NCBI GenBank assembly: GCA_003221085.1
Contig: QHUD01000204.1
Coordinates: 768-35,925 of the forward strand
Origin: Gemmatimonadota bacterium
GTDB lineage: Bacteria > Gemmatimonadota > Gemmatimonadetes > Gemmatimonadales > GWC2-71-9
Length of the DNA stretch: 35,158 bases
Direction of reading: 5' to 3'
Shown: positions 1,127-32,125 of the stretch, piece by piece
Layout of the letters: each line of letters begins with the position of its first letter
How positions within the stretch are numbered: the stretch's first letter is position 1
Notes under the pieces: generated by a model
Told to the model about the DNA's origin: nothing
Seen by the model: only the letters and a program-made list of their open reading frames with translations
The model's database searches: none
Program-made: the position numbers and the translations under genes

Positions 1127-1347
1127 TCGTCGAGCAGCTCGTCCAGGATCCGTCGCTTCAATTCGGGGGGGGCGCCTTGGGCTTTGCAGCGGGCCTGCAG
1201 GAAATCGAGGAACAGCTTTTCGAAGTCGAATTGCTCACCGCACGGCGGGCAGTCTGTCAGGTGCTGGCGGATCTCCTGCTCGACCGCTGGCGTGAGCTCG
1301 CGGTCGAGATACTCATACAGGTGCTCCCTGCACTCCCGACAATTCAT
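1123..1347 (-). CDS. Zinc-binding anti-sigma factor (ZAS, RsrA-like, cytoplasmic)
   Basis: 74 aa with CxxC at residues 3-6 and the HxxxCxxC motif (HLTDCPPC). Its ATG overlaps the stop of the upstream ECF sigma gene (ATGA), the classic sigma/anti-sigma coupling. Confidence 0.75.
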   Translation of the reverse strand: MNCRECREHLYEYLDRELTPAVEQEIRQHLTDCPPCGEQFDFEKLFLDFLQARCKAQGAPPELKRRILDELLDE

Positions 1348-1979: not shown

Positions 1980-1988
1980 GGCGTCTCG

Positions 1989-2015
1989 TAACCTCTCTCC
2001 GGGCGCCCGGGTTCC
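1989..2015 (-). promoter_or_regulatory. Candidate ECF (SigR/SigH/SigE-type) autoregulated promoter GGAAC-N18-GTT
   Basis: The reverse strand reads tgcGGAACccgggcgcccggagagagGTTAcgagacgccATG. The -10 element ends only 9 nt before the sigma ATG, which implies a near-leaderless mRNA. Confidence 0.4.
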
Positions 2016-2049
2016 GCAATGGGGCGGGGCCGGCTAGGTTTCGCGCGCC

Positions 2050-2655: not shown

Positions 2656-3836
2656 TGCCATTGCTGGAGGGGTTCGACCTCCCCGCGCTCGCACAGGAGC
2701 TCGGCGCGCTCGGGGCCGACGGCTGGCTGTTATATGACTTCCGCAAGCTGAATCCGATCGCCGGCCGCATCCTCGGCGACACCGGGATGGGAACGCGACG
2801 TCTGTTCGTGCTGCTGCCGCGCTCGGGTCATCCCGTCGCGGTGGCCCATCGCATCGAGCTCCAGGCACTCGCCGACTTTCCGGGTGAAGTGCGGCCCTAC
2901 GGCGCGTGGCGCGAGCTGTACGGGCACCTCGAGGCGCTGGTCCGCGGCCGCACCCTCGCGATCGAAACCTCGCCTCGTGACCAGGTACCATACCTCGATC
3001 GCGTACCGCACGGCGTGGTCCAGCTGCTCGAGTCGCTCGGCGCTCGGCTGGTGTCGTCCGCGCCGCTCGTGTCCCGCTTCGCGGCGCGGTGGTCGGCGCC
3101 GGAGCTGGCGGGCCACCGCAAGGCGGCGGAGGTCCTCGCGAGCGTCGCGCGCGAGACGCTGACCTGGCTGGGGAGCGAGGCGGCGCGCGGCGCCGAGGTG
3201 CGGGAGACCGGCGTGCAGCTGCGCGTGCTCGAGGCGATCGAGCGCGCGGGGCTCTGGACCAACGACGGGCCAATCGTCGCGTTCGGTCCGACCAGCGCGA
3301 TGCCTCACTACGAGCCGCGTCCGGGGGCCGACCGGCGTCTGGCGGGGGGCGACGTGGTCTTGCTCGATCTGTGGGCCGGGCCGGGCAAGGGCTCCGTGTT
3401 CGCCGACCAGACTTGGATGGGGTTCGCGGGGCGCACGCCCGATGCGGACGTGCGCCGCGTGTGGCAGGCAGTGAAGGGGGCGCGCGAGGCCGCCGTCCGC
3501 TTCTTGCGTGAGCGCTGGCGGCCGGATGGCGCCGTGACGGGCGCGCAGGTGGATGACGCCGCGCGCGCCGTCATCCGCGACGCCGGGCTGGCCGACTACT
3601 TCGTACATCGCACAGGACATTCGATCGATCGCGACGTGCACGGCTCCGGGCCGCATATCGACAACTTCGAGACCGAGGACGCGCGGGCCCTGGTGTCCGG
3701 CGTGGGCTTCTCGATCGAGCCGGGTGTCTATCTGCCGGAGCGTTTTGGGATGCGCAGCGAGATCAACGTGTACATCGACACGGCGGGTCCCGAGGTGAGT
3801 CCCACCCGCCCGCAGGACGAGCTGATCCTGATCTGA
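2655..3836 (+). CDS. M24 family metallopeptidase (Xaa-Pro aminopeptidase-like)
   Basis: Pita-bread-fold metal-ligand motifs are present: VVLLDLWA, HRTGHSIDRDVHGSGP and GVGFSIEPGVYLPERFGMRSEINV. I place the start at ATG 2655 (MPLLEGF...), overlapping the upstream stop. The track ORF starts at 2619. Confidence 0.8.
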   Translation: MPLLEGFDLPALAQELGALGADGWLLYDFRKLNPIAGRILGDTGMGTRRLFVLLPRSGHPVAVAHRIELQALADFPGEVRPYGAWRELYGHLEALVRGRTLAIETSPRDQVPYLDRVPHGVVQLLESLGARLVSSAPLVSRFAARWSAPELAGHRKAAEVLASVARETLTWLGSEAARGAEVRETGVQLRVLEAIERAGLWTNDGPIVAFGPTSAMPHYEPRPGADRRLAGGDVVLLDLWAGPGKGSVFADQTWMGFAGRTPDADVRRVWQAVKGAREAAVRFLRERWRPDGAVTGAQVDDAARAVIRDAGLADYFVHRTGHSIDRDVHGSGPHIDNFETEDARALVSGVGFSIEPGVYLPERFGMRSEINVYIDTAGPEVSPTRPQDELILI

Positions 3837-3848
3837 CGGTCGAACGGC

Positions 3849-4709
3849 TCAGAGCACTGCGAGGACCAGTCCTGCCCACACCGCCGCGCCCACCGCCACG
3901 TGCGCGGCCTGGAGCGGTTGAGGAAGCGCGAGCAGCACCATCGCGGCGGCGACCGCGACCTGCAGGGTGACGAGGCCAACCACGTACCACGCACCACGCC
4001 GCTTCGAGTGCACCGCCCACCACACGACGTACGCGAACAGGGTGTACGCGAGCAGCCGGTGGGCCCAATGGATGTGCTGCAGGTAGTTCCCCGCCGGGGC
4101 GAGCTGGCCGGTGCAGAGCGGGAATCCGAGGCACGCGCTCGCCGCCCCCAGGTTGGCCGTGAGCGCGCCGAGCAGGACCGTCAGGAAGCCCAGAACGAGC
4201 GCCACGATTCCCACTAACCCCGGGCGCGAGCCCGGGGTGATCGGGGGCTCCGTGTCCCCCGGGCTTGCGCCCGGGGTCAGCTTTGCGACGACGATCAAGG
4301 TCGCCAGAAGCAGCATCGCCGTTCCGAGATGGAGGATCACAGTCCACGCCGGCAGGCTCAGCTTCACTGTCACCGCGCCGAGCACGACCTGCACGACGAG
4401 CAGCCCCAACGCGACGTAGGCGGTTCTGTCGGGAGAGAACCGCTCCCCGCTCCCTGCTCCCCGTCGCAGCCACCACGCATACGCCGCGAGTGTGGCAACC
4501 AGCCCACTCACCGCCGCGGCCGCCAGCCGGTGCCCGTACTCGATCATCGTCGGGAGGTCGAGCGGTGGGAGCAGCCTGCCGTTGCAGAGCGGCCAATGCT
4601 CGCCGCAGCCCAGTCCCGATCCGGTGATCCGGACGATCGCGCCGAGGATGACGAGCAGGTAGGTGAAGGTCGCCGCGGTCCAGGCGAGTCGCGTAAAGGG
4701 TCGCGTCAT
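3849..4709 (-). CDS. ctaA: Heme A synthase (COX15/CtaA family)
   Basis: Multi-pass membrane protein with GSGLGCGEHWPLCNG, MIEYGHRLAA, CLGFPLC and HWAHRLLA motifs (paired Cys and His heme ligands). The start is chosen at MTRPFTRL (ATG 4709); the longer track ORF reaches 4814. Confidence 0.8.
   Translation of the reverse strand: MTRPFTRLAWTAATFTYLLVILGAIVRITGSGLGCGEHWPLCNGRLLPPLDLPTMIEYGHRLAAAAVSGLVATLAAYAWWLRRGAGSGERFSPDRTAYVALGLLVVQVVLGAVTVKLSLPAWTVILHLGTAMLLLATLIVVAKLTPGASPGDTEPPITPGSRPGLVGIVALVLGFLTVLLGALTANLGAASACLGFPLCTGQLAPAGNYLQHIHWAHRLLAYTLFAYVVWWAVHSKRRGAWYVVGLVTLQVAVAAAMVLLALPQPLQAAHVAVGAAVWAGLVLAVL
4213..4279. repeat. GC-rich double-hairpin element (two inverted 24-nt units) inside the ctaA coding sequence
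   Basis: The sequence is ctaaCCCCGGGCgcgaGCCCGGGG, then a 19-nt spacer, then CCCCGGGCttgcGCCCGGGGtcag. The 25-mer ccccgggcttgcgcccggggtcagc (4256-4280) recurs exactly at 31893-31917. Confidence 0.85.
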
Positions 4710-4763
4710 GGGTGCGGAAATGTAGGTCGGTTGAGCGACCCCGGGCGACGTGTCCCGGGTCAC

Positions 4764-4791
4764 TTGACAAGGCTTCGGCTCGGGTAGAAAT
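4764..4791 (+). promoter_or_regulatory. Candidate sigma-70-type promoter (TTGACA-N15/16-TAGAAAT)
   Basis: TTGACA lies at 4764-4769 and TAGAAAT at 4785-4791, about 58 nt upstream of ATG 4849. The spacer is slightly short. Confidence 0.3.
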
Positions 4792-4848
4792 GTTGTACTG
4801 CACAAACTGACCAACGCCCCTCGTGCGGACCTTCTGTTCCGAGGCCCA

Positions 4849-5160
4849 ATGACCCGTCGACTGACGCCGGATGTTCAACTGGTAGCGCGCATGGCCGCAG
4901 GTGACCGCGACGCCCACACAGAGTTTTGCGAGCGCCACCGTCTCTCGCTGTACGCGCAAGTCTATGCCCTGCTCGTCGACGCGGCCTCTGCCGAGCGGGT
5001 CGTGGTGGAGACCCTCGAGCGCGCGTGGCATGCGGCGAAAGATTTCAATCCCGGCGCCGGGAGCGCGTTCGCCTGGCTGTCGGAGATCGCCCGGTCCCTG
5101 GCGCAGCATCGACGGCGCCCGCCCCATGACCCCACGGCATCGCCTTCCGTAGCGCTGTAG
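4849..5160 (+). CDS. Short sigma-70 region-2-only protein (truncated ECF-sigma-like)
   Basis: 103 aa: VARMAAGDRDAHTEFCERHRLSLYAQVYALLVDAASAERVVVETLERAWHAAKDFNPGAGSAFAWLSEIARSLAQHRRR. This looks like ECF region 2.1-2.4, but there is no region 4/HTH. Confidence 0.45.
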   Translation: MTRRLTPDVQLVARMAAGDRDAHTEFCERHRLSLYAQVYALLVDAASAERVVVETLERAWHAAKDFNPGAGSAFAWLSEIARSLAQHRRRPPHDPTASPSVAL

Positions 5161-5201
5161 TCCGCCGCGACCTGGCCGGCGCGCAGTATATTCGGCCTCT
5201 C

Positions 5202-6572
5202 ATGTCCACTTCCCCCCTGGCTCCCGCGACGGATCGCTGGGGCGACCGGCTGCCGCGCCGGCTTGGCTTCTGGAGTGCCGTCGCCGTGCTGGTCGGCTCC
5301 ACCATCGGCGGCGGGATCTTTCGCACCCCTGCCGTCATCGCCGAGCGCGTGCCGGCGCCCCTGCCGATGTTCAGCGTGTGGGTGCTGGGCGGCCTGCTGG
5401 CGTTGTGCGGCGCGCTCACGTACGCGGAGCTTGCGGCGCTGTTCCCGCGCTCGGGCGGCGTGTACGTGTACATCCGCGAGGGCTTCGGCCGGTTGCCGGC
5501 ATTCCTCTTCGGGTGGACCGAGCTGGTGCTGATCCGGGCATCCGCGCTCGGCGCTATTGCCACGCCGTTTGCCGAGTACCTGCTGCGCTCCATCGGCCGG
5601 GATCCGGCGCTGCCCGAGAATGCCGGACTGGTGCACTACGTGGCCGCGGCGGCCATCGCAGTCACCGCGGCGCTGAATTACTACGGCGTGCGGTGGAGCG
5701 CGCTCGTTTTGAATCTCACCACCGGCGCCAAGTACGGCGCGTTGGTGGTGCTCGTGCTCCTGGCGTTTCTCATAGGGCAGGGCGACTGGACACATTTCAC
5801 GACCGCGGTGGGTCCGGTCACGCCAGGCCTGTTCGGCTTGGCGCTGGTCTCGGTGCTGTGGGCGTACGACGGCTGGGGCGATCTCTCGTTCGTGGGCGGC
5901 GAAGTGCGTGATCCGGAGCGCAACCTGCCACGGGCGCTGGTGGTGGGGACGGCCGGTATCATCGCGATCTACCTGCTCGTCAACGCGGCGTATCTCTACT
6001 TGCTGCCGCTCGGCCAGATGGCGCGCTCGCCGCTGGTGGCGGCCGACGCCGCACAGGCGGTGCTGGGCCGCATCGGCGTCGGCGCCGTGACCGTCGTGGT
6101 GATGCTCGCGACCTTCTCCACGCTCGTGGGGTCGATTCTTACGGCGCCGCGTATCTTTTTTGCGATGGCGGATGACGGGCTCTTCTTCCGGGCCATCGCG
6201 ACGGTGCACCCGCGGTACCAGACGCCGTCGGCGGCGATAGTGCTCACCGGCTGCCTGGGGATCGGCTTCGTGCTGATCCGCACCTTCGAGCAGCTCGCGG
6301 ACCAGTTTGTCGTTGCCATCTTCCCGTTCTACGCGCTCGCGGCCGCGGCAGTGTTCGTGCTGCGTCGCCGGCGCCCCGACTTACCGCGGCCGGTTCGCGT
6401 CCTCGGGTATCCTATAGTGCCGCTCCTCTTCGTGCTCGCGAGTCTCCTCATCCTCGGCAATGCGCTGTGGGCGCACCCGCGAGAGACGGGGTTCGCCTTC
6501 CTGATCATTCTGCTCGGCGTTCCGGTCTACTCCTGGTGGATTCGCCCGCGCGAGCATGGGGGGTCGGCGTGA
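5202..6572 (+). CDS. APC superfamily amino acid/polyamine permease
   Basis: 456 aa with about 12 hydrophobic segments. The N-terminal signature is VGSTIGGGIFRTPAVIA ... YAELAALFPRSGGVYVYIREGFG. Confidence 0.85.
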   Translation: MSTSPLAPATDRWGDRLPRRLGFWSAVAVLVGSTIGGGIFRTPAVIAERVPAPLPMFSVWVLGGLLALCGALTYAELAALFPRSGGVYVYIREGFGRLPAFLFGWTELVLIRASALGAIATPFAEYLLRSIGRDPALPENAGLVHYVAAAAIAVTAALNYYGVRWSALVLNLTTGAKYGALVVLVLLAFLIGQGDWTHFTTAVGPVTPGLFGLALVSVLWAYDGWGDLSFVGGEVRDPERNLPRALVVGTAGIIAIYLLVNAAYLYLLPLGQMARSPLVAADAAQAVLGRIGVGAVTVVVMLATFSTLVGSILTAPRIFFAMADDGLFFRAIATVHPRYQTPSAAIVLTGCLGIGFVLIRTFEQLADQFVVAIFPFYALAAAAVFVLRRRRPDLPRPVRVLGYPIVPLLFVLASLLILGNALWAHPRETGFAFLIILLGVPVYSWWIRPREHGGSA

Positions 6573-20263: not shown

Positions 20264-21925
20264 GTGACCTGGCTGAGGGGTGACCGGCGGGGGTCAGTCC
20301 TCCCGACTCCGCAGAGCCTGCTGCGGTCGGTGTACGCCGGGCGGATGTGCGTCGCCGGGGCGATCTACCTGACCGCGGCGCTCAAGTTCGCGGTCGTGGC
20401 GCCGCTCGACCTGCTCGTCACCTCGTTCGTGCTGGTCGCGGCGGTGGTGGTGACCATCGCCTCCTACTGGTACACCCACCTGTCGCGTCGCACGCCCGGC
20501 CGGACCTTCCTCTACGGGCAGGCGCTGTTCGACGTGGCGCTGATCACGACGGTCGTGCACATCACGGGTGGCCCGCAGAGCGACCTGACGCCCCTCTACG
20601 TCCCGCTGATCGCGGTGACGGCGGTGCTGATGCCGCCAGCGAGCACGGGGCTGATCACGGCGCTGGTGGGCATCGTCTACTTCGCCGACGTGTTCTTCGG
20701 GCACACCACGCCGATGTCGGCACAGGTGGGGTTGCAGCTGCTGGTGTTCGCTGCGGTAGCTGCCGTCACCGCCTACTTCGCGAGTCGGGTATCGGTGATG
20801 GGCGCGGAGCGGGAAGCGCTGGCGGGGGAGCTCCGGCAGGCGCGGCTGGAGGCGGCCGACGTGCTGCGGAGCGTCCCAACGGGGATCGTCACGGTGGACC
20901 AGGCGGGTCATCTGCTGTACTGCAATCCTGCGGCCGAGCAGATCCTCGGCTTCAAAGAACGCCAGTGGCGAGGGCGCCCGATCATGCCGGAGTTCGCGAA
21001 GATCGCTCCCGAGTTCTGGGCCGCGATCACCGCCACTGCGCGACGGGGCGTGCGGGCCATGCGGGTCGAGGCGACGGTACGGCGTTCCGATCGCACCTTC
21101 CCGATCGGCGTGACGACGACGACGCTGGACGTCGAGCCGGCGGGCGAGCCTCGGGTCACGGCGATCTTCACCGATATCTCGGACTCGAAGCGACTCGAGG
21201 AGCTCCATTTGCGCGCGGAGCGGCTCGAGGCCGTGGCGGAGCTGTCGTCGAGCCTGGCGCACGAGATCAAGAACCCGCTTGCGTCGATCCGCTCGTCGGT
21301 GGAGCAGCTGGGACGCGCGAAGCGCGTGAACGCCGACGAGAAGTTCTTGACGTCGCTGGTGGTGCGCGAGACCGACCGGCTGTCGCGTCTGCTCTCGGAG
21401 TTTCTCGATTTCTCCCGCGTGCGGGCCACGGAGTGCCGGCCGCTCGACCTCCACAGCGTGGCGGCCGCGGCGATCCGTCTCGTGCGCGAGCACCCGGACT
21501 GCCCCGAGGATGCTGTCATCGACCTGATGGGCGACGCCACGCCCATGGAGGGCGACGAGGACTTGTTGCATCGCGTGGTGTCGAACCTGGTGCTGAACGC
21601 CGTCCAGGCCACCGGGAAGGGCGCGCGCGTCGTGGTGCGGACTGGACGGCCCCAGCCCCACGACCTGCCCGGGGGGGCCGGCATCGAGAGCCCCGTATCC
21701 CTCGCCGTGAGCGACAATGGCCCGGGCATACCCGACAACCTGCGGGCCCGCCTGTTCGAGCCGTTCGTGACCGGTCGCGTGGGTGGCACCGGCCTCGGCC
21801 TCGCCATCGTACAGCGCGCCGTGGACGCGCACCGCGGGCTCGTGCTCGTGGACTCCCCGCCGGGGCAGGGCACGACGTTCACCGTCTACTTCCCCGCCGC
21901 GCGGCGGAAAGAGGAAGCGGCATGA
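20264..21925 (+). CDS. pilS: Membrane sensor histidine kinase (multi-TM N-terminus, PAS, HisKA, HATPase_c), PilS-like
   Basis: 553 aa with about 5-6 N-terminal TM helices and a PAS-like region (VPTGIVTVDQAGHLLYCNPAAEQILG). Kinase motifs: H-box (SLAHEIKNPLASIRSSVEQL), N-box (LVLNAVQAT), G1 (DNGPGIP) and G2 (GGTGLGLAIV). The stop overlaps the ATG of the NtrC-type regulator. Confidence 0.8.
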   Translation: MTWLRGDRRGSVLPTPQSLLRSVYAGRMCVAGAIYLTAALKFAVVAPLDLLVTSFVLVAAVVVTIASYWYTHLSRRTPGRTFLYGQALFDVALITTVVHITGGPQSDLTPLYVPLIAVTAVLMPPASTGLITALVGIVYFADVFFGHTTPMSAQVGLQLLVFAAVAAVTAYFASRVSVMGAEREALAGELRQARLEAADVLRSVPTGIVTVDQAGHLLYCNPAAEQILGFKERQWRGRPIMPEFAKIAPEFWAAITATARRGVRAMRVEATVRRSDRTFPIGVTTTTLDVEPAGEPRVTAIFTDISDSKRLEELHLRAERLEAVAELSSSLAHEIKNPLASIRSSVEQLGRAKRVNADEKFLTSLVVRETDRLSRLLSEFLDFSRVRATECRPLDLHSVAAAAIRLVREHPDCPEDAVIDLMGDATPMEGDEDLLHRVVSNLVLNAVQATGKGARVVVRTGRPQPHDLPGGAGIESPVSLAVSDNGPGIPDNLRARLFEPFVTGRVGGTGLGLAIVQRAVDAHRGLVLVDSPPGQGTTFTVYFPAARRKEEAA

Positions 21926-23298
21926 GCCAGCAGCCATCGATTCTGGTTGTCGACGACGAGATGGGGATCCTGGATGTGCTCCGGATCCTGTTGAAGGGGG
22001 AAGGCTTCGACGTCACGACCGCCCAGGGCGGGAAAGCCGGGCTCGAGGCGCTGAAGGGGAACCCGCCCGACATCGTGCTGACGGATATCAAGATGCCGGG
22101 CGTTTCGGGCACCGAGATCCTGGCTGCGGTGCGGGAGCAGGACCCCGAGACTCCCGTGATCCTCATGACGGCGCAGGCCTCGCTGCAGAGCGCGATCCAG
22201 GCGGTGAACCAGGGAGCGTTCTACTACATCCAGAAGCCGTTCTCGAACGACGACCTGGTCGCGATTTGCCGGCGCGCCGCGGAGCAGCGCCTCCTCAAGG
22301 CCGAGAACAAGCAGCTCAAGCAGGAGATCCGTCGGCGCGAGCGCTCCGGGCTCGTGAAGCCGCTGGGCAAGTCGCGTGCCTTCCAGGACGTGCTGAAGCT
22401 CGCCGAACAGGTGGCGCCCACCGAGAGCACGGTGCTCATCCAGGGAGAGTCGGGGACGGGGAAGGAAGTCATCGCGCGCTACATCCACGAGCTGTCAGCG
22501 CGCGCGGACGGTGGATTCTTTTCACTCAACTGTGGCGCGCTGCCGGAGAGCCTCCTCGAGTCGGAGCTGTTCGGCCACGTGAAGGGATCGTTCACGGGCG
22601 CGGTCCGGGACAAGCAGGGTCTGTTCGCGGCCGCCCGCGGGGGCACGTTCTTCCTGGACGAGATTGGTGAGATGTCGCCCGCGACCCAGGTGAAGCTGCT
22701 GCGGGTGCTGCAGGAGCGCGAGGCGATCCCCGTGGGCGGCACCGAGGCCATTCCGGTCGACGTTCGGGTCGTGGCCGCGACCAACCGTGACCTCGAGGAC
22801 GACATCAAGCGCGGTCGCTTCCGCACCGACCTGTACTACCGGCTGAATGTGATCGCCATCCATCTGCCGCCGCTGCGCGACCGGCGCGACGACATTCAGA
22901 TCCTGTGGGAGGAGTTCCTGAGTCGCATTGCCAGCGAGCGCGGCGAGCAGCCCAAGGCGCTCGCGCAGGAGGTGAAGGACGCCCTGCTCGCCTACGACTG
23001 GCCCGGCAACGTCCGCGAGCTCGAGAACGCCCTCGAGCGGGCGGTCGTGCTCAGCAAAGGGACGACGATCGATCTCGCGTCCCTGCCCGACAAGCTCACG
23101 GAGCGCCGCGCCGAGCCCCTCGTCGCCGAGCGGCCGCACGCGAACCCCACCCTCGACGTGATCGAGCGCGCCTACATCACCTGGGTGCTGCAGAGCGAGG
23201 GCGGCAACAAGACCCGCGCCGCCGAAGTGCTCGGCATCGATCCCTCTACGCTCTATCGCAAGCTGAGCCGTTACGAAGGCGATGTCCCCCCCGGGTGA
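21922..23298 (+). CDS. pilR: Sigma-54-dependent response regulator (REC, AAA+, Fis-HTH), PilR-like
   Basis: 458 aa starting MSQQPSILVVDDE. It has the receiver Asp (IVLTDIKMPG), Walker A (GESGTGKE), a GAFTGA-type loop (GSFTGA), the R-finger region and a C-terminal HTH (NKTRAAEVLGIDPSTLYRKL). Confidence 0.85.
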   Translation: MSQQPSILVVDDEMGILDVLRILLKGEGFDVTTAQGGKAGLEALKGNPPDIVLTDIKMPGVSGTEILAAVREQDPETPVILMTAQASLQSAIQAVNQGAFYYIQKPFSNDDLVAICRRAAEQRLLKAENKQLKQEIRRRERSGLVKPLGKSRAFQDVLKLAEQVAPTESTVLIQGESGTGKEVIARYIHELSARADGGFFSLNCGALPESLLESELFGHVKGSFTGAVRDKQGLFAAARGGTFFLDEIGEMSPATQVKLLRVLQEREAIPVGGTEAIPVDVRVVAATNRDLEDDIKRGRFRTDLYYRLNVIAIHLPPLRDRRDDIQILWEEFLSRIASERGEQPKALAQEVKDALLAYDWPGNVRELENALERAVVLSKGTTIDLASLPDKLTERRAEPLVAERPHANPTLDVIERAYITWVLQSEGGNKTRAAEVLGIDPSTLYRKLSRYEGDVPPG

Positions 23299-23998: not shown

Positions 23999-24720
23999 CG
24001 ACCGGAGACCTGCTGCTCTCGGTGGTCGTGCCCGCGTACAACGAGGCGACGACGATCGAAGCCGCCCTGCGGCAACTCGAGGGGGTCCCGCTGCGCCTCG
24101 AGGTGATCGCCGTGGACGACGCGTCGACCGACGGTACCGGCGCCATTCTCGACGGCCTGGCGGGCACGGGGCTCGTACACCAGGTGCTCCACCATCCGAC
24201 CAACCGCGGCAAAGGCGCGGCGCTCAAAACCGGGATCGCGGCGGCCACGGGCAGCGTGATCGTGGCGCAGGACGCCGATCTCGAGTACGATCCCGCCGAC
24301 CTCCCTCGCCTGCTCGCGCCCATCAAGGAAGGCCGGGCCGACGCGGTCTACGGCTCGCGCTTTCAGGGCGGCCCGCACCGCGTGCTGTTCTTCTGGCATG
24401 CGGTCGGCAACAATCTGCTCACGCTCGTCTCCAACATGTTCACGAATCTGAACCTGACGGACATGGAGACCTGCTACAAGCTGGTCAGGGCCGATCTCCT
24501 GAAACGGCTGCCGCTCACGTCGGAGCGGTTCGGGATCGAGGTGGAGCTCACGGCCCGGCTGGCGCAGGCGGGCGCGCGCGTCTGGGAGCTGCCCATCTCC
24601 TACAGCGGCCGGACCTACGCCGAAGGGAAGAAAATCACGTGGCGTGACGGGTTCGCGGCGTTCTTTCACATCCTCCGCTACAACCTGTTCCCGCCCCGCG
24701 GCAAATGGCGTGAGCGCTAG
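23995..24720 (+). CDS. GT2 family glycosyltransferase, polyprenol-phosphate-sugar-synthase-like (Dpm1/GtrB/ArnC-type)
   Basis: A TTG start overlaps the methyltransferase stop (TTGA). Motifs: LSVVVPAYNE, VIAVDDASTDGT, NRGKGAALKTG, AQDADLEYDP and GSRF. The product is 241 aa. Confidence 0.75.
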   Translation: MTTGDLLLSVVVPAYNEATTIEAALRQLEGVPLRLEVIAVDDASTDGTGAILDGLAGTGLVHQVLHHPTNRGKGAALKTGIAAATGSVIVAQDADLEYDPADLPRLLAPIKEGRADAVYGSRFQGGPHRVLFFWHAVGNNLLTLVSNMFTNLNLTDMETCYKLVRADLLKRLPLTSERFGIEVELTARLAQAGARVWELPISYSGRTYAEGKKITWRDGFAAFFHILRYNLFPPRGKWRER

Positions 24721-26227
24721 GCGCCTGTACGCCGCCGTCGCGCTCTGCGCCGTGGCCGTGCACGTCGGCGCGCTCTGGAATCACTTCGCGCTCGACGACA
24801 ACCAGATCGTCCAGTTCAACAAGCTGGTGCTCCAGTTCAGCGGCGTGTGGCGGGCGTTCGTGAGCCCCTACTGGCCCCCGGTCATCGGGGGCGGGATGTA
24901 TCGTCCCTTACCGCTCGCCTCGTACGCCCTCGACTGGCAGCTCGGGGGCGCGGCCTGGTGGTTTCACGCCGTGAACGTCGCCTGGCACGCCGGGGCGAGC
25001 GTGGCTGTCGCGTGGCTGGCGCGACAGTGGAGCGGCGAGCGGGCGGCGCTCGCCGCCGGGCTGCTGTTCGCGGTGCATCCGGTCCACGTCGAGGCCGTCG
25101 CCAACATCGTCGGCCGCGCCGAGCTGATGGCCTCGCTGTTCGCAATCCTTTGCGTCTACGCGGCGCTGGCGCACGATCGTCTGTGGTGGAGCGCCGCAGC
25201 GCTCACCGCCGGTCTCCTCAGTAAGGAGAATGCGGTCGTCGCGCCGGCGCTCATCGTCTGGGGGTGGATGATCGGGTTGGCCCCCCGCCCGTCCCGCGGA
25301 CGGATGGCCGCGTACGCCGGCGCATGGGTCGGCCTCGGCCTCGTGTACGTACTGGTCCGGTCGAGCGTCCTGGGCCACGAGCTGGTGGGCCGCCCGGCAC
25401 CCGTGTTCTTCGGCGCGTCTCCCGTCGCCGTCCGGTTGACGGCCGTGGCGGCGCTCGCGGATGTGGCGCGGCTCCTGGTCTTTCCGCTCACGTTGCGTGT
25501 CGATTATTCGCCCGCCGAGCGTACCCTCGTCACGACCCCGTTCGACTCCCGCTTCGCACTCGGGTTGCTGTGCGTCGTGGCCTGGGGTGCGCTCCTCTGG
25601 CTCGCCTGGCGGCGCGGGCGTCGGGTCGAGGCGTTCGGGCTGGGCTGGATTGGGATCGCCCTCTTTCCGGTGTCGAACCTCGTGGTCCCCGTGGGAGTCC
25701 TCCTGGCTGAGCGCGCGCTGTACATGCCGTCCGCCGGAGTCGCGTTGGCGGCCGGGACATGGCTCAAGGACCTCGAGACGCGCCGGCTGGCGCTGGTTCT
25801 CAGCGTGCTCGTCGTGGCCGGGGGCATCCGGAGCGCTCTCCGCGTGCCGGTGTGGCGGGACACCCAGGCGGTGATCGGCAGCGAGCTAGAAGACTCCCCC
25901 AACTCGTTCGCCGGTCCCGCCCACATGGTCGTGATGTATCTGACCGGGCATCAGCCGGCCAAGGCCCTCGAGGCATATCGCCGAGCCACCGAGCTCTATG
26001 ACGTGACGCTGCCGTGGCTGCAGATCCAGGGCGCTGAAGCGGCGTTCGCCACCGGGCGGCACGCCCTGGCGGACTCGCTGCTCGATCGAGTCGAGAGGGT
26101 CTGCCGGCCATGTGATTTCTACTACCGATACGAGTCCTCGGTCGCCCGCGCCCGCGGCTACCCCGCCGCCGCCGACTCGTTTGCCGCCCGCGTCGGACGG
26201 GCGCCGGGCCCCGTCCATGAGCCCTAG
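24710..26227 (+). CDS. TMTC/DUF1736-like GT-C fold membrane glycosyltransferase, paralog 1
   Basis: A GTG start overlaps the GT2 gene by 11 nt. The product has about 10 or more TM segments. The first loop carries ALWNHFALDDNQIV (acidic DD motif). FAVHPVHVEAVANIVGRAELMA matches my recollection of the DUF1736 signature. The C-terminal soluble part is TPR-like (AKALEAYRRATELYD). Confidence 0.6.
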   Translation: MSARRLYAAVALCAVAVHVGALWNHFALDDNQIVQFNKLVLQFSGVWRAFVSPYWPPVIGGGMYRPLPLASYALDWQLGGAAWWFHAVNVAWHAGASVAVAWLARQWSGERAALAAGLLFAVHPVHVEAVANIVGRAELMASLFAILCVYAALAHDRLWWSAAALTAGLLSKENAVVAPALIVWGWMIGLAPRPSRGRMAAYAGAWVGLGLVYVLVRSSVLGHELVGRPAPVFFGASPVAVRLTAVAALADVARLLVFPLTLRVDYSPAERTLVTTPFDSRFALGLLCVVAWGALLWLAWRRGRRVEAFGLGWIGIALFPVSNLVVPVGVLLAERALYMPSAGVALAAGTWLKDLETRRLALVLSVLVVAGGIRSALRVPVWRDTQAVIGSELEDSPNSFAGPAHMVVMYLTGHQPAKALEAYRRATELYDVTLPWLQIQGAEAAFATGRHALADSLLDRVERVCRPCDFYYRYESSVARARGYPAAADSFAARVGRAPGPVHEP

Positions 26228-27629
26228 ACGGATGTATCTCGCCGTCGGCTTGTGCGCCGTGGTGGTCTACCTCGGCGCGCTGTGGAACCAGTTCGCCCTG
26301 GATGATATCCCGATCATCGTGGTGAACCCGCTGGTCGCGCACCCGTCAGGGATCTGGCGGGCGTTCACGGCGCCCTACTGGGCGGCAGACTTCGGCGGTC
26401 ACATGTACCGGCCATTGGTCATCGCGGGGTTCGCCCTCGATGCGCTGGTGGACGAGACCGTCTGGTTCCACGCGGTGAACCTGCTATGGCACGCCGGGGC
26501 CGCGGTGGCGGTCGCGGCCCTGGCCCGGCGCTGGATGGATACGGCGGGCGGGCTCGTCGCCGGGTTGCTGTTCGCGGTGCACCCCGTGCACGTGGAGGCC
26601 GTCGCGAACGTCGTGGGTCGCGCGGAGCTCATGGCGACGCTGTTCACGCTCCTCGTCGTGTACGCCGCGCTCGGTCGCGCTCACCCAGGCTGGAGCGCAG
26701 CCGCCCTCGCCTTCGGCCTTCTATCCAAGGAGAACGCGGCGGTCGCACCCGCTTTGGTCGTCTGGGCGTGGATGCTCGGCCTCGACCGGCCCGACCGACG
26801 CCGCATGGTCTCGCTCGTCGTCGGGTGGGTGCTGGTGGGCGTCGCGTACACCGCCGTTCGCACGTTGGTACGCCAGCCGTTCGGCGGGTACATGAGCGTC
26901 GCGCCGATGTTCATCGGCCAGTCGTGGCTCTCGGTGCGCCTCACCGCGGTCGCCGCGCTCGCCGATGTGGCGCGTCTGCTCGTCTTCCCACTCACGCTGC
27001 GCGTGGACTATTCGCCCAACGAGCGCACCATCGTCACGTCGCCCCTCGACCTCCGCTTCGCCGCCGGCCTGTTCTGCGCGCTGGTGTGGGCTGCCTTGTT
27101 GACCGTCTCCTGGAGGCGCGGGAGGAAGCTCGAGGCGTTCGGTCTCGGTTGGATCGGCGTCGCCTTCCTGCCCGTGGCCAACCTCCTCTATCCCGCCGGC
27201 TTCTACGTAGCGGAGCGCACGCTCTATCTCCCGTCAGCGGGGCTGGTGCTCGCGGCGACCGCCGCCCTGTGCCGCTTGCCGCGGGACCGCGTGCGCCTGG
27301 TGGTGGCGATTCTCTGCATACTCGGCGGCGTCCGCACCGCGCTGCGGGTTCCGGTGTGGCGCAATGATAACGCGGTCACGCTGAGCATCATCGAAGACTC
27401 GCCGGACTCCTACGGGGGTCCGGTGCGCATGGCCGGTGTGTACCTGGCGGCACTCGCGCTGGGCGACTCGGGTGCGGCGGATTCGCTCCTTGCGCGGCTC
27501 GAGCGCTTCTGCTCCGGCGCGTGCGCCGCCGGCTACCTCCGTTACGAGGCCACGATGGCGCGTGCCCACGGCTATCCGGGGACCGCCGACTCGCTGCTGG
27601 CTCGCGCCGGCCGGCTGCAGGAGCCGTGA
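26217..27629 (+). CDS. TMTC/DUF1736-like GT-C fold membrane glycosyltransferase, paralog 2
   Basis: The ATG overlaps paralog 1 by 11 nt. The product is collinear with paralog 1 (ALWNQFALDDIPII, FAVHPVHVEAVANVVGRAELMA, LLVFPLTLRVDYSP) but has a shorter C-terminal domain. Confidence 0.6.
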   Translation: MSPRRMYLAVGLCAVVVYLGALWNQFALDDIPIIVVNPLVAHPSGIWRAFTAPYWAADFGGHMYRPLVIAGFALDALVDETVWFHAVNLLWHAGAAVAVAALARRWMDTAGGLVAGLLFAVHPVHVEAVANVVGRAELMATLFTLLVVYAALGRAHPGWSAAALAFGLLSKENAAVAPALVVWAWMLGLDRPDRRRMVSLVVGWVLVGVAYTAVRTLVRQPFGGYMSVAPMFIGQSWLSVRLTAVAALADVARLLVFPLTLRVDYSPNERTIVTSPLDLRFAAGLFCALVWAALLTVSWRRGRKLEAFGLGWIGVAFLPVANLLYPAGFYVAERTLYLPSAGLVLAATAALCRLPRDRVRLVVAILCILGGVRTALRVPVWRNDNAVTLSIIEDSPDSYGGPVRMAGVYLAALALGDSGAADSLLARLERFCSGACAAGYLRYEATMARAHGYPGTADSLLARAGRLQEP

Positions 27630-27659
27630 GGGCCGAAGGACAGCACGTTGCGCTCAGCG

Positions 27660-27680
27660 CGGGGCCTTGCAAAAAACCCG
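27660..27680 (+). promoter_or_regulatory. Conserved upstream motif CGGGGCCTTGCAAA-N3-CCCG, candidate enhancer (bEBP) site for pilA copy 1
   Basis: The same motif recurs at 28299-28319 and 28919-28939. In each case the GGGG run begins exactly 111 nt before the GGGCAC of the -24 element, although the intervening DNA has diverged and is AT-richer. Confidence 0.4.
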
Positions 27681-27771
27681 ACTCGACCCAGTGTCGCGGA
27701 GCGTACTAAGAATCGCCCCTATCTATCTAACGTATTGCAGGACAGCGCCTTATGGTACGTTAAGTGACACA

Positions 27772-27787
27772 GGGCACGGGCTTTGCT
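27772..27787 (+). promoter_or_regulatory. Sigma-54 (-24/-12) promoter of pilA copy 1
   Basis: GGGCAC-gggct-TTGCT matches TGGCAC-N5-TTGCW with correct GG/GC spacing. It lies 92 nt upstream of ATG 27864. Confidence 0.7.
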
Positions 27788-27863
27788 TTACCCACCCGTG
27801 GGAAATTGTGCTTCAGGAAGTTTTGGGTAGTCATGAGCTGGACTTCAACGGGGGTAAAGTCAG

Positions 27864-28211
27864 ATGAACCGCAAGGGTTTCACACTCATTGAGCTGCTGA
27901 TCGTGGTGGTGATCATCGGCATTCTGGCCGCCATCGCGATCCCGAAGTTCGCCAACACGAAGGCGAAGGCGTACATCGCCTCCATGAAGTCGGACCTTCG
28001 GAACCTGGTGACCGCCGAAGAGGCGTATTTCGCCGACTCGGTCAAGTACAGCGCGACGCTGGGGACCATCGGTCTCGCGGCCGGTAACGGCGGCTGGAGC
28101 GTGACGGTCACGAACAACAACCTGACCACTCCGCTGGTGACGTGCGCGATCTTCATTAACACCGCGGCGTTGGCGCCGGCGGCCTCGGAAGGCGCGCCCG
28201 CCTGTCAGTAA
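27864..28211 (+). CDS. pilA: Type IVa major pilin PilA (intact copy)
   Basis: 115 aa. The class III signal is MNRKG/FTLIELLIVVVIIGILAAIAIPKF with Glu5. A C-terminal disulfide loop runs VTC...APAC-Q. Confidence 0.9.
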   Translation: MNRKGFTLIELLIVVVIIGILAAIAIPKFANTKAKAYIASMKSDLRNLVTAEEAYFADSVKYSATLGTIGLAAGNGGWSVTVTNNNLTTPLVTCAIFINTAALAPAASEGAPACQ

Positions 28212-28239
28212 GTCGGCGAGCCTTGCGGACATCTGACGA

Positions 28240-28269
28240 GCGGCGGGGACTTCCCCGCCGCTTCGTTTT
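28240..28269 (+). terminator. Rho-independent terminator after pilA copy 1
   Basis: GCGGCGGGG-actt-CCCCGCCGC followed by TTCGTTTT. Confidence 0.75.
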
Positions 28270-28298
28270 GGCCTTCTCAGGGGCCATTGCGGTCGGCC

Positions 28299-28319
28299 CG
28301 GGGCCTTGCAAATATCCCG
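28299..28319 (+). promoter_or_regulatory. Conserved upstream motif (copy 2), candidate enhancer site
   Basis: cggggccttgcaaatatcccg, 111 nt upstream of the copy-2 -24 element. Confidence 0.4.
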
Positions 28320-28410
28320 AATTTATCGATTCTGTTAGGCGACTCGAGCGCGTCCGTTCTCTCCTGTAACTGCTTGCAACGGAGTGTGTTAGGCGCGTTT
28401 CCGTGACGCA

Positions 28411-28426
28411 GGGCACGAGGTTTGCT
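28411..28426 (+). promoter_or_regulatory. Sigma-54 (-24/-12) promoter of pilA copy 2
   Basis: GGGCAC-gaggt-TTGCT, 71 nt upstream of ATG 28482. Confidence 0.65.
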
Positions 28427-28481
28427 TCACGTATCACTTTGAAGAGTCCGCTGCCATCGACTCGAACGGGGGTAAAGTCAG

Positions 28482-28830
28482 ATGAACCGCAAGGGTTTCA
28501 CACTCATCGAGCTGCTGATCGTGGTGGTGATCATCGGCATTCTGGCCGCCATCGCGATCCCGAAGTTCGCCAACACGAAGGCGAAGGCGTACATCGCCTC
28601 CATGAAGTCGGACCTTCGGAACCTGGTGACCGCCGAAGAGGCGTATTTCGCCGACTCGGTCAAGTACAGCGCGACGACGTCGTGCACCACGCCGCCCACC
28701 GCGGGTAGGTGGCTGGAGCGTGACGGTCACGAACAACAACCTGACCACTCCGCTGGTGACGTGCGCGATCTTCATTAACACCGCGGCGTTGGCGCCGGCG
28801 ACCACGGAAGGCGCGCCCGCCTGTCAGTAA
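28482..28830 (+). pseudogene. pilA: pilA copy 2, frameshifted in the central variable patch (349 nt; zero-frame ORF ends at 28778)
   Basis: The first 194 nt are identical to copy 1 apart from one synonymous change. The 35-nt variable patch encodes TSCTTPPTAG. After ggt-a-ggt the conserved C-terminal module (GGWSVTVTNNNLTTPLVTCAIFINTAALAPATTEGAPACQ, stop 28828-28830) is in the +1 frame. Confidence 0.75.
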
Positions 28831-28857
28831 GCGGCGAGCCTTGCGGACATCTGACGA

Positions 28858-28889
28858 GCGGCGGGGACTTTCCCCCGCCGCTTCGTTTT
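28858..28889 (+). terminator. Rho-independent terminator after pilA copy 2
   Basis: GCGGCGGGG-loop-CCCCGCCGC followed by TTCGTTTT. Confidence 0.7.
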
Positions 28890-28918
28890 GGCCTTCTCAG
28901 GGGCCATTGCGGTCGGCC

Positions 28919-28939
28919 CGGGGCCTTGCAAAAGTCCCG
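28919..28939 (+). promoter_or_regulatory. Conserved upstream motif (copy 3), candidate enhancer site
   Basis: cggggccttgcaaaagtcccg, 111 nt upstream of the copy-3 -24 element. Confidence 0.4.
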
Positions 28940-29030
28940 GTTTGCTCGATTGCTTCCGGGACGAGAAGCTGTCGGTTCAATCGATGTAACTGGTTTTCAT
29001 AAACCGTCTTATGCGCCTTTTGGTGACGCA

Positions 29031-29046
29031 GGGCACGCGGTTTGCT
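29031..29046 (+). promoter_or_regulatory. Sigma-54 (-24/-12) promoter of pilA copy 3
   Basis: GGGCAC-gcggt-TTGCT, 72 nt upstream of ATG 29103. Confidence 0.65.
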
Positions 29047-29102
29047 TCATCCACCGGGTGGGAAGATCCCGCTCTAATCGACTTCAACTGGAGCAATGTC
29101 AG

Positions 29103-29442
29103 ATGAACCGCAAGGGTTTCACACTCATTGAGCTGCTGATCGTGGTGGTGATCATCGGCATTCTGGCCGCCATCGCGATCCCGAAGTTCGCCAACACGAA
29201 GGCGAAGGCGTACATCGCCTCCATGAAGTCGGACCTTCGGAACCTGGTGACCGCCGAAGAGGCGTATTTCGCCGACTCGGTCAAGTACAGCGCGACCCGT
29301 CGGCCTCGCGGCCGGTAACGGCGGCTGGAGCGTGACGGTCACGAACAACAACCTGACCACTCCGCTGGTGACGTGCGCGATCTTCATTAACACCGCGGCG
29401 TTGGCACCGGCGACCACGGAAGGCGCGCCCGCCTGTCAGTAA
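29103..29442 (+). pseudogene. pilA: pilA copy 3, 8-nt shorter variable patch causing a frameshift (340 nt; zero-frame ORF stops at 29318 after 71 codons)
   Basis: The first 194 nt are identical to copy 1. The 26-nt patch is copy-1-like but lacks 8 nt, giving ...SVKYSATRRPRGR-stop. The conserved 120-nt C-terminal module continues in the +1 frame to TAA 29440-29442. The track ORF start at 28926 is an upstream read-through artefact. Confidence 0.75.
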
Positions 29443-29472
29443 GCGGCGACCTTGCGGCGGCATCCGAACTGA

Positions 29473-29501
29473 GCGGCGGGGACTTCCCCGCCGCTTCGTT
29501 T
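29473..29501 (+). terminator. Rho-independent terminator after pilA copy 3
   Basis: GCGGCGGGG-actt-CCCCGCCGC followed by TTCGTTT. Confidence 0.7.
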
Positions 29502-29520: not shown

Positions 29521-30651
29521 ATGGCGGCCAAGCCCGCGCTCCGGACCGAGCTGCTCTTCTACCTGTCGTTCCTCGCCGCCGCCGCCCTGCTGATTGGGGT
29601 GGCGACCATGCTGGTCGCCACGAGTTTCGCTCCCGAGCGGACGTTCGTGCTGGTGATGCTCCTGGTCGCTCTGGAAGTGGCCGTGTTCCTCGTGTTCGGA
29701 CGCTACCTCGTAAACCGGCTGGTCCTGTGGCCTCTGGAGCGCGTGGTCGCCACCGCCGACGCGGTGGCGGACGGCGACCTGGCGCGGCGCGCGCCGGACG
29801 CGGAGACGCGCGACTTCGCCACCCTCGCGGAGCGGCTCAACCGCATGACCGATCACCTGCTCGATGCGCAAGGGCAGCTGGTGCGCTCGGAGAAGCTCGC
29901 CAGCATCGGCCGGCTGGCGGCCGGGATCGCCCATGAGGTAGGCAACCCGCTGGGCGCGATCGGAACCTACGTGGAAGTCCTGCGGCGCCGTGGCGCCGAC
30001 CCGGGGGTGGTCGCGGGCGTGACGCGCGAGCTCGAGCGCCTCGACCACATCGTGCGCGGGCTCCTGGACTACGCGCGACCCCAGGAGGAGCCGCTCGCGC
30101 CGCTCGATGCCGCTGCGGTGGCGCGGAGCGCCTACGGGCTGCTCGAGGCGCAGGGAGCGCTGAAGCCCGTGCGCCCGCGCCTCGAGGTCGCGGGCGACGT
30201 GCCACGGATGCTCGGCCGGGCGCACCTCCTGGAGCAGGCGATCGTCAACCTGGTACTGAACGCGGTCGATGCGGCGCCCCAGGGGGTCGTGATCCTCGGG
30301 GCGAGGGCGTGGGCGTACGAGTCGCGGCGCGCGTCGCCCAAGCGGGCGGACGATCCGCAGCGGAGTGCGTTTCCGCGCGGCGCCGAGCGTCGTCCGGGGC
30401 GCGCAGACTTCACTCCCGGGCAGCGGGGAGTGCTCCTCTACGTGGCGGATTCGGGCCCTGGCGTCCTCCCCGAGGACCGCGACACGATCTTCGAGCCGTT
30501 CTACACCACGAAGGCCCCGGGCCGGGGAACCGGATTGGGCCTCGCGATCGTCGCGCGGGCGGTGCACGACATGGGAGGGGTGGTGTGGGTGGACACGGCG
30601 CGGGAGGGAGGGGCGGCGTTTAAGATGTTCTTCCCGGAGGCGACCGCGTGA
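29521..30651 (+). CDS. Sensor histidine kinase (2 TM, HAMP, HisKA, HATPase_c)
   Basis: 376 aa with two N-terminal TM helices and a HAMP-like linker (LERVVATADAVADGDLARR...LAERLNRMTDHL). Kinase motifs: H-box (AAGIAHEVGNPLGAI), N-box (LVLNAVDAA), G1 (DSGPGV) and G2 (GRGTGLGLAIV). Confidence 0.85.
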   Translation: MAAKPALRTELLFYLSFLAAAALLIGVATMLVATSFAPERTFVLVMLLVALEVAVFLVFGRYLVNRLVLWPLERVVATADAVADGDLARRAPDAETRDFATLAERLNRMTDHLLDAQGQLVRSEKLASIGRLAAGIAHEVGNPLGAIGTYVEVLRRRGADPGVVAGVTRELERLDHIVRGLLDYARPQEEPLAPLDAAAVARSAYGLLEAQGALKPVRPRLEVAGDVPRMLGRAHLLEQAIVNLVLNAVDAAPQGVVILGARAWAYESRRASPKRADDPQRSAFPRGAERRPGRADFTPGQRGVLLYVADSGPGVLPEDRDTIFEPFYTTKAPGRGTGLGLAIVARAVHDMGGVVWVDTAREGGAAFKMFFPEATA

Positions 30652-30739: not shown

Positions 30740-32125
30740 ATGACACGAGTCCTCGTCGTAGACGACGAACCCGGCCTGCGCCAGTCGCTCGGCCTATTGC
30801 TGGCGGACGCCGGTTACGACGTGGTGGCCGAGGGTAACGGGACGCGAGCGCTCGAGCGCGCGCTCGCCGAGTCGTTCGACCTGGTGCTGTGCGACGTGCG
30901 AATGCCAGAGATGGAGGGGCTGGCCTTCCTGCGCGCTTACAAAGGACGAGGTGGTACGGCCCTGGTCATCATGATGAGCGCCTACGGCGGCGAGGAAGCG
31001 GCGCTCGCGGCCATGAAGGAGGGCGCGTACGACTACATCCCCAAGCCGTTCCGGCCGGACGAGGTCGTCCTCACCCTTCGCAAGGCGGAGGAGCGGGAGC
31101 GGCTAGGGCGCACCATCGCGACACTAAGGGCACAGTTAGATAGCGCTCCTGCAGCCCGGGCGCTGATTGCCGAGAGCCCGGCCATGCGACAAGCCCTGGA
31201 GATCGTGGCGCGCGTGGCGGGTCATCCCACGACGGTACTGATCACGGGCGAGCGCGGCACCGGCAAGGAGGTCATCGCGCAAGCGATCCACCGAGCCAGT
31301 GCCCGCGCGGCGGGCCCGTTCGTGGCGGTGAACTGCGCCGCGATTCCCGACACGCTGCTCGAGTCGGAGCTGTTCGGCTACGTGAAGGGGGCGTTCACCG
31401 GGGCCGCCGCGGATCGTCCGGGGCTGTTCGAGCAAGCCGATGGCGGAACCCTCCTGCTCGACGAGGTGGGCGAGCTGCCGCTGGCGCTCCAGGCAAAGCT
31501 GCTGCGCGTGCTGCAGGAGAATGAGATCCGCCGGGTGGGAGACCAGAAGACGCGGCGCGTCGACGTGCGACTGCTCGCGGCGACTGCCAAGGACCTCGGC
31601 GCCGAGGCGGCGTCCGGCCGGTTTCGACACGATCTCCTGGACCGCTTGAACGTCGTGGCCATTCACCTGCGCCCGCTGTCCGAACGGCGCGCCGACATCG
31701 CGCCCCTGGCGGCGCATTTTGCTGCCCGGCTTGCCGGCCGGCTGGGCCGGCGCGTGGCCTTGAGCGAGGCGGCGCTCGCGTGGCTCGGCGAGCAGCCGTG
31801 GCCGGGCAACGTGCGCTCGCTCGAGCACGCCATCGAGCGGGCGGCGGTGCTGTCGGAAAAGGAGGTTCTGGAGCCGAAGGACTTTGGGCCCACCCCGGGC
31901 TTGCGCCCGGGGTCAGCACTGACCCCCGACACGCCACTGACCTCGGGCGCAAGCCCGGGGTTGCCGGAGACCGGGACCCTCAAGCACGCGGTCGAGCTGG
32001 CCGAGCGCCAGGCGATTACCGCAGCTCTCGGGGCGGCGGCAGGCAACCGCCGCGAGGCTGCCAAGCGGCTCGGCGTGAGCCTCCGGACGCTCTTCTACAA
32101 GATGGACCGATACGGCATCGAGTAG
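30740..32125 (+). CDS. Sigma-54-dependent response regulator (REC, AAA+, HTH), second NtrC-family activator
   Basis: 461 aa starting MTRVLVVDDEPG. It has the receiver Asp (LVLCDVRMPE), GERGTGKE, GAFTGA and the HTH (NRREAAKRLGVSLRTLFYKM). The Pro/Gly-rich linker (PTPGLRPGSALTPDTPLTSGASPGLPE) is encoded by the repeat at 31893-31960. Confidence 0.85.
   Translation: MTRVLVVDDEPGLRQSLGLLLADAGYDVVAEGNGTRALERALAESFDLVLCDVRMPEMEGLAFLRAYKGRGGTALVIMMSAYGGEEAALAAMKEGAYDYIPKPFRPDEVVLTLRKAEERERLGRTIATLRAQLDSAPAARALIAESPAMRQALEIVARVAGHPTTVLITGERGTGKEVIAQAIHRASARAAGPFVAVNCAAIPDTLLESELFGYVKGAFTGAAADRPGLFEQADGGTLLLDEVGELPLALQAKLLRVLQENEIRRVGDQKTRRVDVRLLAATAKDLGAEAASGRFRHDLLDRLNVVAIHLRPLSERRADIAPLAAHFAARLAGRLGRRVALSEAALAWLGEQPWPGNVRSLEHAIERAAVLSEKEVLEPKDFGPTPGLRPGSALTPDTPLTSGASPGLPETGTLKHAVELAERQAITAALGAAAGNRREAAKRLGVSLRTLFYKMDRYGIE
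31893..31960. repeat. GC-rich double-hairpin element (24-nt unit, 20-nt spacer, inverted 24-nt unit) inside the regulator coding sequence
   Basis: CCCCGGGCttgcGCCCGGGGtcag, then cactgacccccgacacgcca, then ctgaCCtCGGGCgcaaGCCCGGGG. The unit is identical to 4256-4279. Confidence 0.85.

Follow-up and report, generated by a model that had tools for sequence, protein, structure and literature searches.

Three tandem type IVa pilA copies in a soil Gemmatimonadales genome: an apparent hypervariable patch very probably left by local mis-assembly

Introduction

Loci of the pilA-pilS-pilR type, in which the major pilin is expressed in a sigma-54-dependent manner, are found in Pseudomonas aeruginosa, Myxococcus xanthus and Geobacter. 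A pilA locus of comparable layout lies on contig QHUD01000204.1 of a Gemmatimonadota metagenome-assembled genome (MAG), of which a stretch of 35,158 nucleotides (nt), referred to here as the window, was analysed. As in the loci of these three groups, the prepilin is of type IVa, has a short leader, G/FTLIEL and Glu5, and is encoded behind a -24/-12 promoter, with a histidine kinase and a sigma-54 activator directly downstream. Unlike them, it carries three promoter-bearing pilA copies that are homogenised within each genome, and it is known here from sequence alone.

A sequence-only reading of the window had described near-identical 5′ and 3′ modules around a hypervariable patch, with a single copy in frame, and had proposed donor cassettes, deliberately truncated pilins, recoding, or mis-assembly of a 0.6-kb triplicated repeat as explanations. 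The analysis reported here indicates that local mis-assembly, and not biology, in all likelihood explains the patches and the frameshifts; the combination of a hypervariable patch and a single in-frame copy very probably does not exist in the organism. In its true form the locus is most likely an unremarkable tandem set of three intact pilA genes located just 5′ of pilS/pilR.

Local assembly errors at repeats have been documented in short-read metagenome scaffolds built with IDBA-UD (Chen et al. 2020, Genome Res, PMC7111523). The window resembles these cases in having unsupported sequence where a repeat exceeds the length of the k-mer or read, in the resulting corruption of coding genes, and in the use of the same assembler in the study to which it is attributed. 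It differs from them in showing three clean internal deletions whose left ends lie at k-mer boundaries, with no N gaps and with the right repeat number.

Array Layout and Patch Sequences

The three pilA copies are arranged head-to-tail, with start codons spaced 618 and 621 nt apart (Table 1). Copy 1 is the only copy in frame, with an open reading frame (ORF) of 115 amino acids (aa), and copies 2 and 3 are out of frame, with stops at 28778 and 29318. Unit alignment and position-by-position comparison show the copies to be identical from 5 nt before the ATG to gene offset 193, with the sole exception of a T/C difference at offset 26, and their 3′ ~120 nt differ at just 3–4 positions. Copy-to-copy identity within the window is 98.5–99.1% in the coding sequence versus 57–80% in the spacers. 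The start codons, spacing, gene lengths and stops given by the sequence-only reading were all reproduced, as were its 194-nt 5′ module identical apart from one ATT/ATC codon, its near-identical 120-nt 3′ module and the greater divergence of the non-coding flanks; the promoter, leader and hairpin terminator that it had noted in the defective copies are present in all three.

What lies between the modules is a different matter. In a protein search, the product of copy 1 is identical to PYO95450.1, deposited as "MAG: pilin [Gemmatimonadetes bacterium]", and no exact match to it is present in the contig index; its relatives are mostly 132–136 aa in length. These relatives share one centre of ~97 nt, ..SVKYSAT-TSCTTPPTAGxVNFCVTTGNxLGT(I/V)GLAAGN-GGWSVT.. 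(..SAT-TSCTTPPTAGTVNFCVTTGNKLGTVGLAAGN-GGW..), and all three patches can be placed on it. The copy 2 patch TSCTTPPTAG, earlier taken for unrelated sequence, is the front of this centre (gene offsets 194–225), and its back supplies both the copy 1 patch LGTIGLAAGN (offsets 257 onward) and the copy 3 patch ..VGLAAGN (offsets 265 onward). Nucleotide alignment to relatives puts the internal losses, as compared with a 411-nt gene, at 63 nt in copy 1, 62 nt in copy 2 and 71 nt in copy 3. Offsets 226–256 (..VNFCVTTGN..) are missing in all copies and absent anywhere in the 35-kb window. By these alignments the patches are leftover pieces of one conserved centre, each copy having a different internal deletion, and since they align to different parts of the same centre the hypervariable patch described earlier dissolves.

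This placement bears on the proposal that copies 2 and 3 act as donor cassettes for the expressed copy, in the manner of Neisseria pilE/pilS. As in Neisseria, the locus has several pilin-related copies and bears signs of gene conversion, and both the identical flanks around a differing centre in tandem copies and the concerted evolution of the coding parts would suit such a system. However, the supposedly variable centres are all parts of a single conserved sequence, and the three copies of a related array (L001; L-numbers denote compared loci or contigs and P-numbers protein entries) encode an identical central peptide. Every copy in the window also has a promoter, a ribosome-binding region, a full 5′ end with leader, and a terminator. 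Unlike pilE/pilS, the window contains neither promoterless, 5′-truncated silent copies nor variable minicassettes, and a G-quadruplex (G4) motif (G3+N1-7 x4) is found on neither strand between 27001 and 29700; the apparent patch itself is very probably an artefact. Donor cassettes are accordingly extremely unlikely.

Assembly Breakpoints

The window is attributed to the Angelo grassland soil MAG study on the basis of its accession series and sister MAGs, not of a direct accession-to-paper link. In that study, reads were hard-trimmed to 200 nt and assembled using IDBA-UD with -mink 30 -maxk 200 -step 10 (PMC6784897). In a graph with k=200, a contig entering a repeat must stop at the last 200-mer that holds a copy-specific base, and each left-hand junction in the array lies at this point. 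The last distinguishing base of copy 1 is 27858 (offset -6), with the join after 28057 (offset 193); the last private base of copy 2 is C28508 (offset 26), with the join after 28707 (offset 225); and the last distinguishing base of copy 3 is T29097 (offset -6), with the join after 29296 (offset 193). The distance is 200 nt inclusive in all three. The longest exact repeat within the window measures 199 nt, or k-1, such that the array shows both features of a de Bruijn-graph mis-join: breakpoints at distance k from the last marker, and no remaining repeat of at least k. By rough reckoning, the probability that three left joins would agree with the k=200 boundary by chance is well below 1 in 10,000.

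These exact boundaries, together with the intact 136-aa genes of relatives described below, point to mis-assembly and bear out that option among those first proposed for the locus. The retained 199-nt exact repeat and the break of each copy exactly at a 200-mer boundary show that the copies in this genome are perfectly identical over more than 200 nt, and offsets 226–256, missing throughout the window, would belong only to the node common to all three copies. In the sequence of events proposed, the contig from each unique spacer would reach into the gene as far as the last 200-mer with a copy-specific base, the shared interior of the three copies would collapse into repeat nodes, and the flanking contigs would then be joined without that interior, giving three deletions of which two break the frame. 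The locus in the organism would hold three intact, near-identical 411-nt (136-aa) type IVa pilA genes, each with its own sigma-54 promoter and terminator. These genes would run from the 5′ module of this genome into ..GGTACGGTCAACTTCTGCGT.., and the full centre would carry ..GCGGGTACGGTCAACTTCTGCGTGACGACCGGTAACAAGCTGGGG.. or a close variant.

Intact pilA Genes in Relatives and Sister MAGs

Loci L001 to L003, which encode the 136-aa full-length relative P0004, have the gene order of the window: two membrane proteins, three intact 136-aa pilA genes, a kinase and a regulator, with DNA ~80–87% identical to the window. The closest relatives are L008, L011, L013 and L009, at 93–98% nt identity, whose pilA copies are 409–411 nt in length and none of which has a 60–70-nt central deletion. 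L008 and L011, with flanks 93–95% identical to the window, have one intact 411-nt pilA each, and L013 has two intact copies. L009 (4445 nt) is palindromic, with four ~409–411-nt pilA copies in both orientations, many 1-nt indels and a kinase at both ends; chimerism or a foldback during assembly probably produced it. When metagenomes were scanned with 31 nt taken from the 3′ module of the window, six contigs were returned, none from the strain of the window, and the deletions of the window were not found in any of these six. Among 80 species-representative genome loci, intact family members are mostly 122–142 aa in length. Tandem arrays of 2–3 near-identical pilA copies are common in Gemmatimonadales genomes, long-read MAGs included.

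Several sister assemblies, attributed to the same soil study, have trouble at the same gene. The pilA interior is the end point of many short-read contigs; in L014, one pilA is accompanied by an orphan contig of 283 nt (L023) consisting of the pilA interior only; and in L055 a run of 144 Ns (453–596) lies inside a tandem pilA copy. This N-run is uninformative with regard to the k=200 signature, as the positions that distinguish the L055 copies are offsets 21, 101 and 116 and the run begins at offset 147. Two sister MAG arrays in which the stretch of identity between copies stays below 200 nt, L029 (185 nt) and L089 (137 nt), are intact.

Evaluation of Alternative Readings

If the deletions were real, the array would have undergone three independent internal losses of 62–71 nt, with slippage at short repeats as one conceivable cause, leaving one short in-frame pilin without its first disulfide loop and two fresh pseudogenes. 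Short microhomologies are present at the joins ((G)CTG in copy 1, near-ACGGT in copy 2 and near-GTCG in copy 3), copy 1 keeps its frame, and the scaffold got through the automated error correction of the study, provided that the attribution is right. A microhomology-mediated deletion was considered and rejected, given that ACGGT in copy 2 and GTCG in copy 3 predict joins one base off. Three losses of similar size would have to have struck a single 100-nt stretch, with no decay in promoters, leaders, coding modules or terminators, and there is no reason for real deletions to place every left breakpoint at the marker + 199 nt, as k=200 predicts, with the longest repeat at k-1. At 115 aa, copy 1 is also shorter than nearly every intact member surveyed, and the deletions are absent from the six metagenome contigs with the 3′ module. 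Other protein-database records with apparent in-frame deletions (P0002, P0008, P0112 and P0119) are single-member entries of the Soil Reference Catalog (SRC), which consists of Plass protein-level assemblies (10.1101/386110), and were set aside as support since they are not genomic evidence. Real deletions of this sort are, on balance, improbable. There is likewise a very small chance that, in this genome or in a subpopulation, each copy of a triplicated major pilin is genuinely missing its own portion of the surface-exposed disulfide-loop region; if true, a deletion-based switch-off or remodelling of pili under phage or predator pressure could be at work, and gene conversion from intact copies present in the population could reverse it.

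Programmed +1 frameshifting of copies 2 and 3, or functional short pilins of 98 and 71 aa resembling Geobacter PilA-N, had also been put forward. Copies 2 and 3 are both 1 mod 3 in length, and the N-terminal helix does resemble Geobacter PilA-N (7tgg, E = 2e-22). However, the proposed shift site, "GGT-A-GGT", is the presumed artificial join 28707/28708 itself, no relative is frameshifted, there is no conserved shifty site, and nearly all complete copies surveyed are in frame. A +1 shift would leave 62–71 nt missing and could not bring back the absent beta-strand and disulfide-loop residues. As for deliberately truncated pilins, the tails of the two short products (RWLERDGHEQQ.. and RRPRGR) are out-of-frame sequence that is not found in homologues and is conserved in no relative. 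Neither recoding nor short functional pilins can be given any appreciable probability.

Some observations do weigh against mis-assembly. The joins were judged from the assembled sequence. The attributed study applied automated scaffolding-error correction after assembly (PMC6784897), which should flag unsupported joins, and the three joins in the window were left as they are, though the equivalent site in L055 was flagged or masked. The right-hand junctions are less exact than the left, starting 0–2 nt ahead of the first base at which the copies differ again downstream (T28710 in copy 2 and G29299 in copy 3), and that of copy 1 begins at a site variable among relatives. An exact k-mer rule for these junctions was sought and could not be derived from a simple three-sequence graph; they fit only approximately with an interior dropped until the copies become distinguishable again. 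Finally, the copy 1 deletion is in frame and takes out one whole disulfide loop with the adjoining segment, and a real variant might look alike.

Concerted Evolution and Significance

Copies within a genome are highly similar to one another, with 98.5–99.1% identity in the window, 93.7–96.6% in L001, 96.5% in L019 and 98.1% in L029, compared with 88–91% between the window and L001; the three-copy architecture is common to both. That copies are closer within than between genomes, while their spacers are diverged, indicates concerted evolution of the coding sequence, probably arising most simply by gene conversion. The gene conversion of coding modules suggested by the sequence-only reading is therefore reasonable, with concerted evolution seen across several genomes. 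The same homogenisation accounts for the damage to the assembly, as it generated a repeat longer than k at which the assembly broke.

The 115-aa "pilin" of the deposited MAG (PYO95450.1) and its two apparent pseudogenes are very probably not in the organism. A distance to the last marker equal to k, combined with a longest repeat of k-1, offers a cheap, read-free sign of such artefacts in short-read MAGs. The underlying biology, three promoter-bearing pilA genes evolving in concert in soil Gemmatimonadales, is a modest observation from an under-studied phylum that involves no new mechanism; the locus itself is an ordinary example of a kind already known.

Pilin Features

The array encodes major pilins of type IVa. 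Their prepilin, MNRKG/FTLIELLIVVVIIGILAAIAIP (the slash marking the cleavage site), has a class III signal peptide, with a basic five-residue leader followed by G/FTLIEL, Glu5 and a hydrophobic N-terminal helix. Matches to N_methyl (Pfam; E = 1.6e-9) and to TIGR02532 (38 bits vs a cut-off of 16) are above cut-off, and the NCBIfam model for Myxococcus PilA is matched over the N-terminal helix only, far below its cut-off. A profile of the family matches the solved pilins Geobacter PilA-N (2e-22), M. xanthus PilA 8tj2 (1e-13), P. aeruginosa PAK 1oqw (4e-10) and Thermus thermophilus PilA 6xxd (1e-8), mainly in the N-terminal helix. Full-length relatives have two conserved cysteine pairs, C68/C80 and C115/C135; as assembled, copy 1 is without the first pair and copies 2 and 3 are without the C-terminal globular domain. 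The AlphaFold model of P0004 consists of a helix (8–58) and three strands, at poor confidence (predicted local distance difference test score, pLDDT, 61).

Promoters, Upstream Box and Terminators

A sigma-54-type -24/-12 motif, GGCACG-N4-TTGCT, is located 5′ of every copy, and GGCAC-N5-TTGC is kept before nearly every pilA copy when 14 upstream regions are compared. Each promoter is preceded at a distance of ~110–125 nt by a conserved box, the core of which, CTTGCAAAA, is also kept 5′ of pilA in several further genomes of Gemmatimonadales, and this box may be a candidate activator-binding site. Downstream of every pilA copy lies a strong GC hairpin that leads into a T-rich tail.

The untranslated leader of copy 1 contains an extra ~20 nt (~27816–27835) that is missing in copies 2 and 3. 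This long leader form also occurs in L008 and in the first and third copies of L001, which implies that array positions are not strictly orthologous between genomes.

Table 1. Coordinates of the pilA array and associated features in the window.
Feature	Position	Strand	Details
Large membrane protein, first of two tandem paralogues, start uncertain	24644..26227	+	ORF; NCBIfam "cell surface glycopolymer formation protein", E = 7e-6, below cut-off
Second paralogous membrane protein	26217..27629	+	ORF from 26112, likely ATG 26217; Pfam TMTC_DUF1736, E = 0.007, below cut-off
Conserved upstream box (..GGGGCCTTGCAAAA..)	27648..27681 (copy 1); 28287-28320 (copy 2); 28907-28940 (copy 3)	+	Repeat family D5
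Sigma-54-type promoter, copy 1	27773..27787	+	GGCACGGGCTTTGCT; motif conservation across 14 upstream regions
pilA copy 1, as assembled	27864..28211	+	348 nt, 115 aa; without 63 nt of centre (21 aa, TSCTTPPTAGxVNFCVTTGNx); presumed artificial join 28057/28058
Hairpin terminator, copy 1	28238..28268	+	Repeat D6; RNA fold -35 kcal/mol (28212-28275)
Sigma-54-type promoter, copy 2	28412..28426	+	GGCACGAGGTTTGCT
pilA copy 2, as assembled	28482..28830	+	349 nt, frame lost; without 62 nt of centre; presumed artificial join 28707/28708
Hairpin terminator, copy 2	28856..28889	+	Repeat and RNA fold
Sigma-54-type promoter, copy 3	29032..29046	+	GGCACGCGGTTTGCT
pilA copy 3, as assembled	29103..29442	+	340 nt, frame lost; without 71 nt of centre; presumed artificial join 29296/29297
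Hairpin terminator, copy 3	29471..29501	+	RNA fold -42 kcal/mol
PilS-like sensor histidine kinase	29521..30651	+	HAMP, HisKA, HATPase_c; position as in L001-L003
PilR-like sigma-54-dependent response regulator	30740..32125	+	Receiver, AAA+ sigma-54 interaction domain (Sigma54_activat), Fis-type helix-turn-helix

Neighbouring Genes and Regulation

The -24/-12 promoters and the adjacent kinase and enhancer-binding regulator make this a PilS/PilR-sigma-54 pilA locus, and, judging from this arrangement, transcription of each copy presumably starts at its own sigma-54 promoter, with the neighbouring PilS/PilR-like pair acting as activator. A second sigma-54-dependent response regulator, a 983-aa ORF with a long N-terminal extension (20347–23298), is located ~4.5 kb upstream of the array.

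The two membrane paralogues, each of ~500 aa and with ~68% nt identity to each other, lie upstream of the array, and such a pair also precedes the pilA array in L001 to L003, L008, L011, L014 and L015. They show weak, sub-threshold similarity to TMTC/PMT-type glycosyltransferases and to the "cell surface glycopolymer formation" family. Because the pilin is rich in Thr and Ser, the pair could represent pilin-modifying enzymes.

Other pilA Loci in Related Genomes

A lone 136-aa pilA with 93% DNA identity to the gene of the window is found in an unrelated context on two contigs (L010, 1401–1811, and L012, 9074–9484), alongside genes for a Ser/Thr kinase with a PEGA domain, extracytoplasmic function (ECF) sigma and anti-sigma factors, and an outer-membrane efflux protein, which suggests a second, unlinked pilA locus or gene transfer. 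On L013 (reverse strand), the pilA array and spacer (145–800) are 96% identical to the window and pilS/pilR (835–6047) just 84%, a mosaic that hints at exchange of pilin alleles between lineages.

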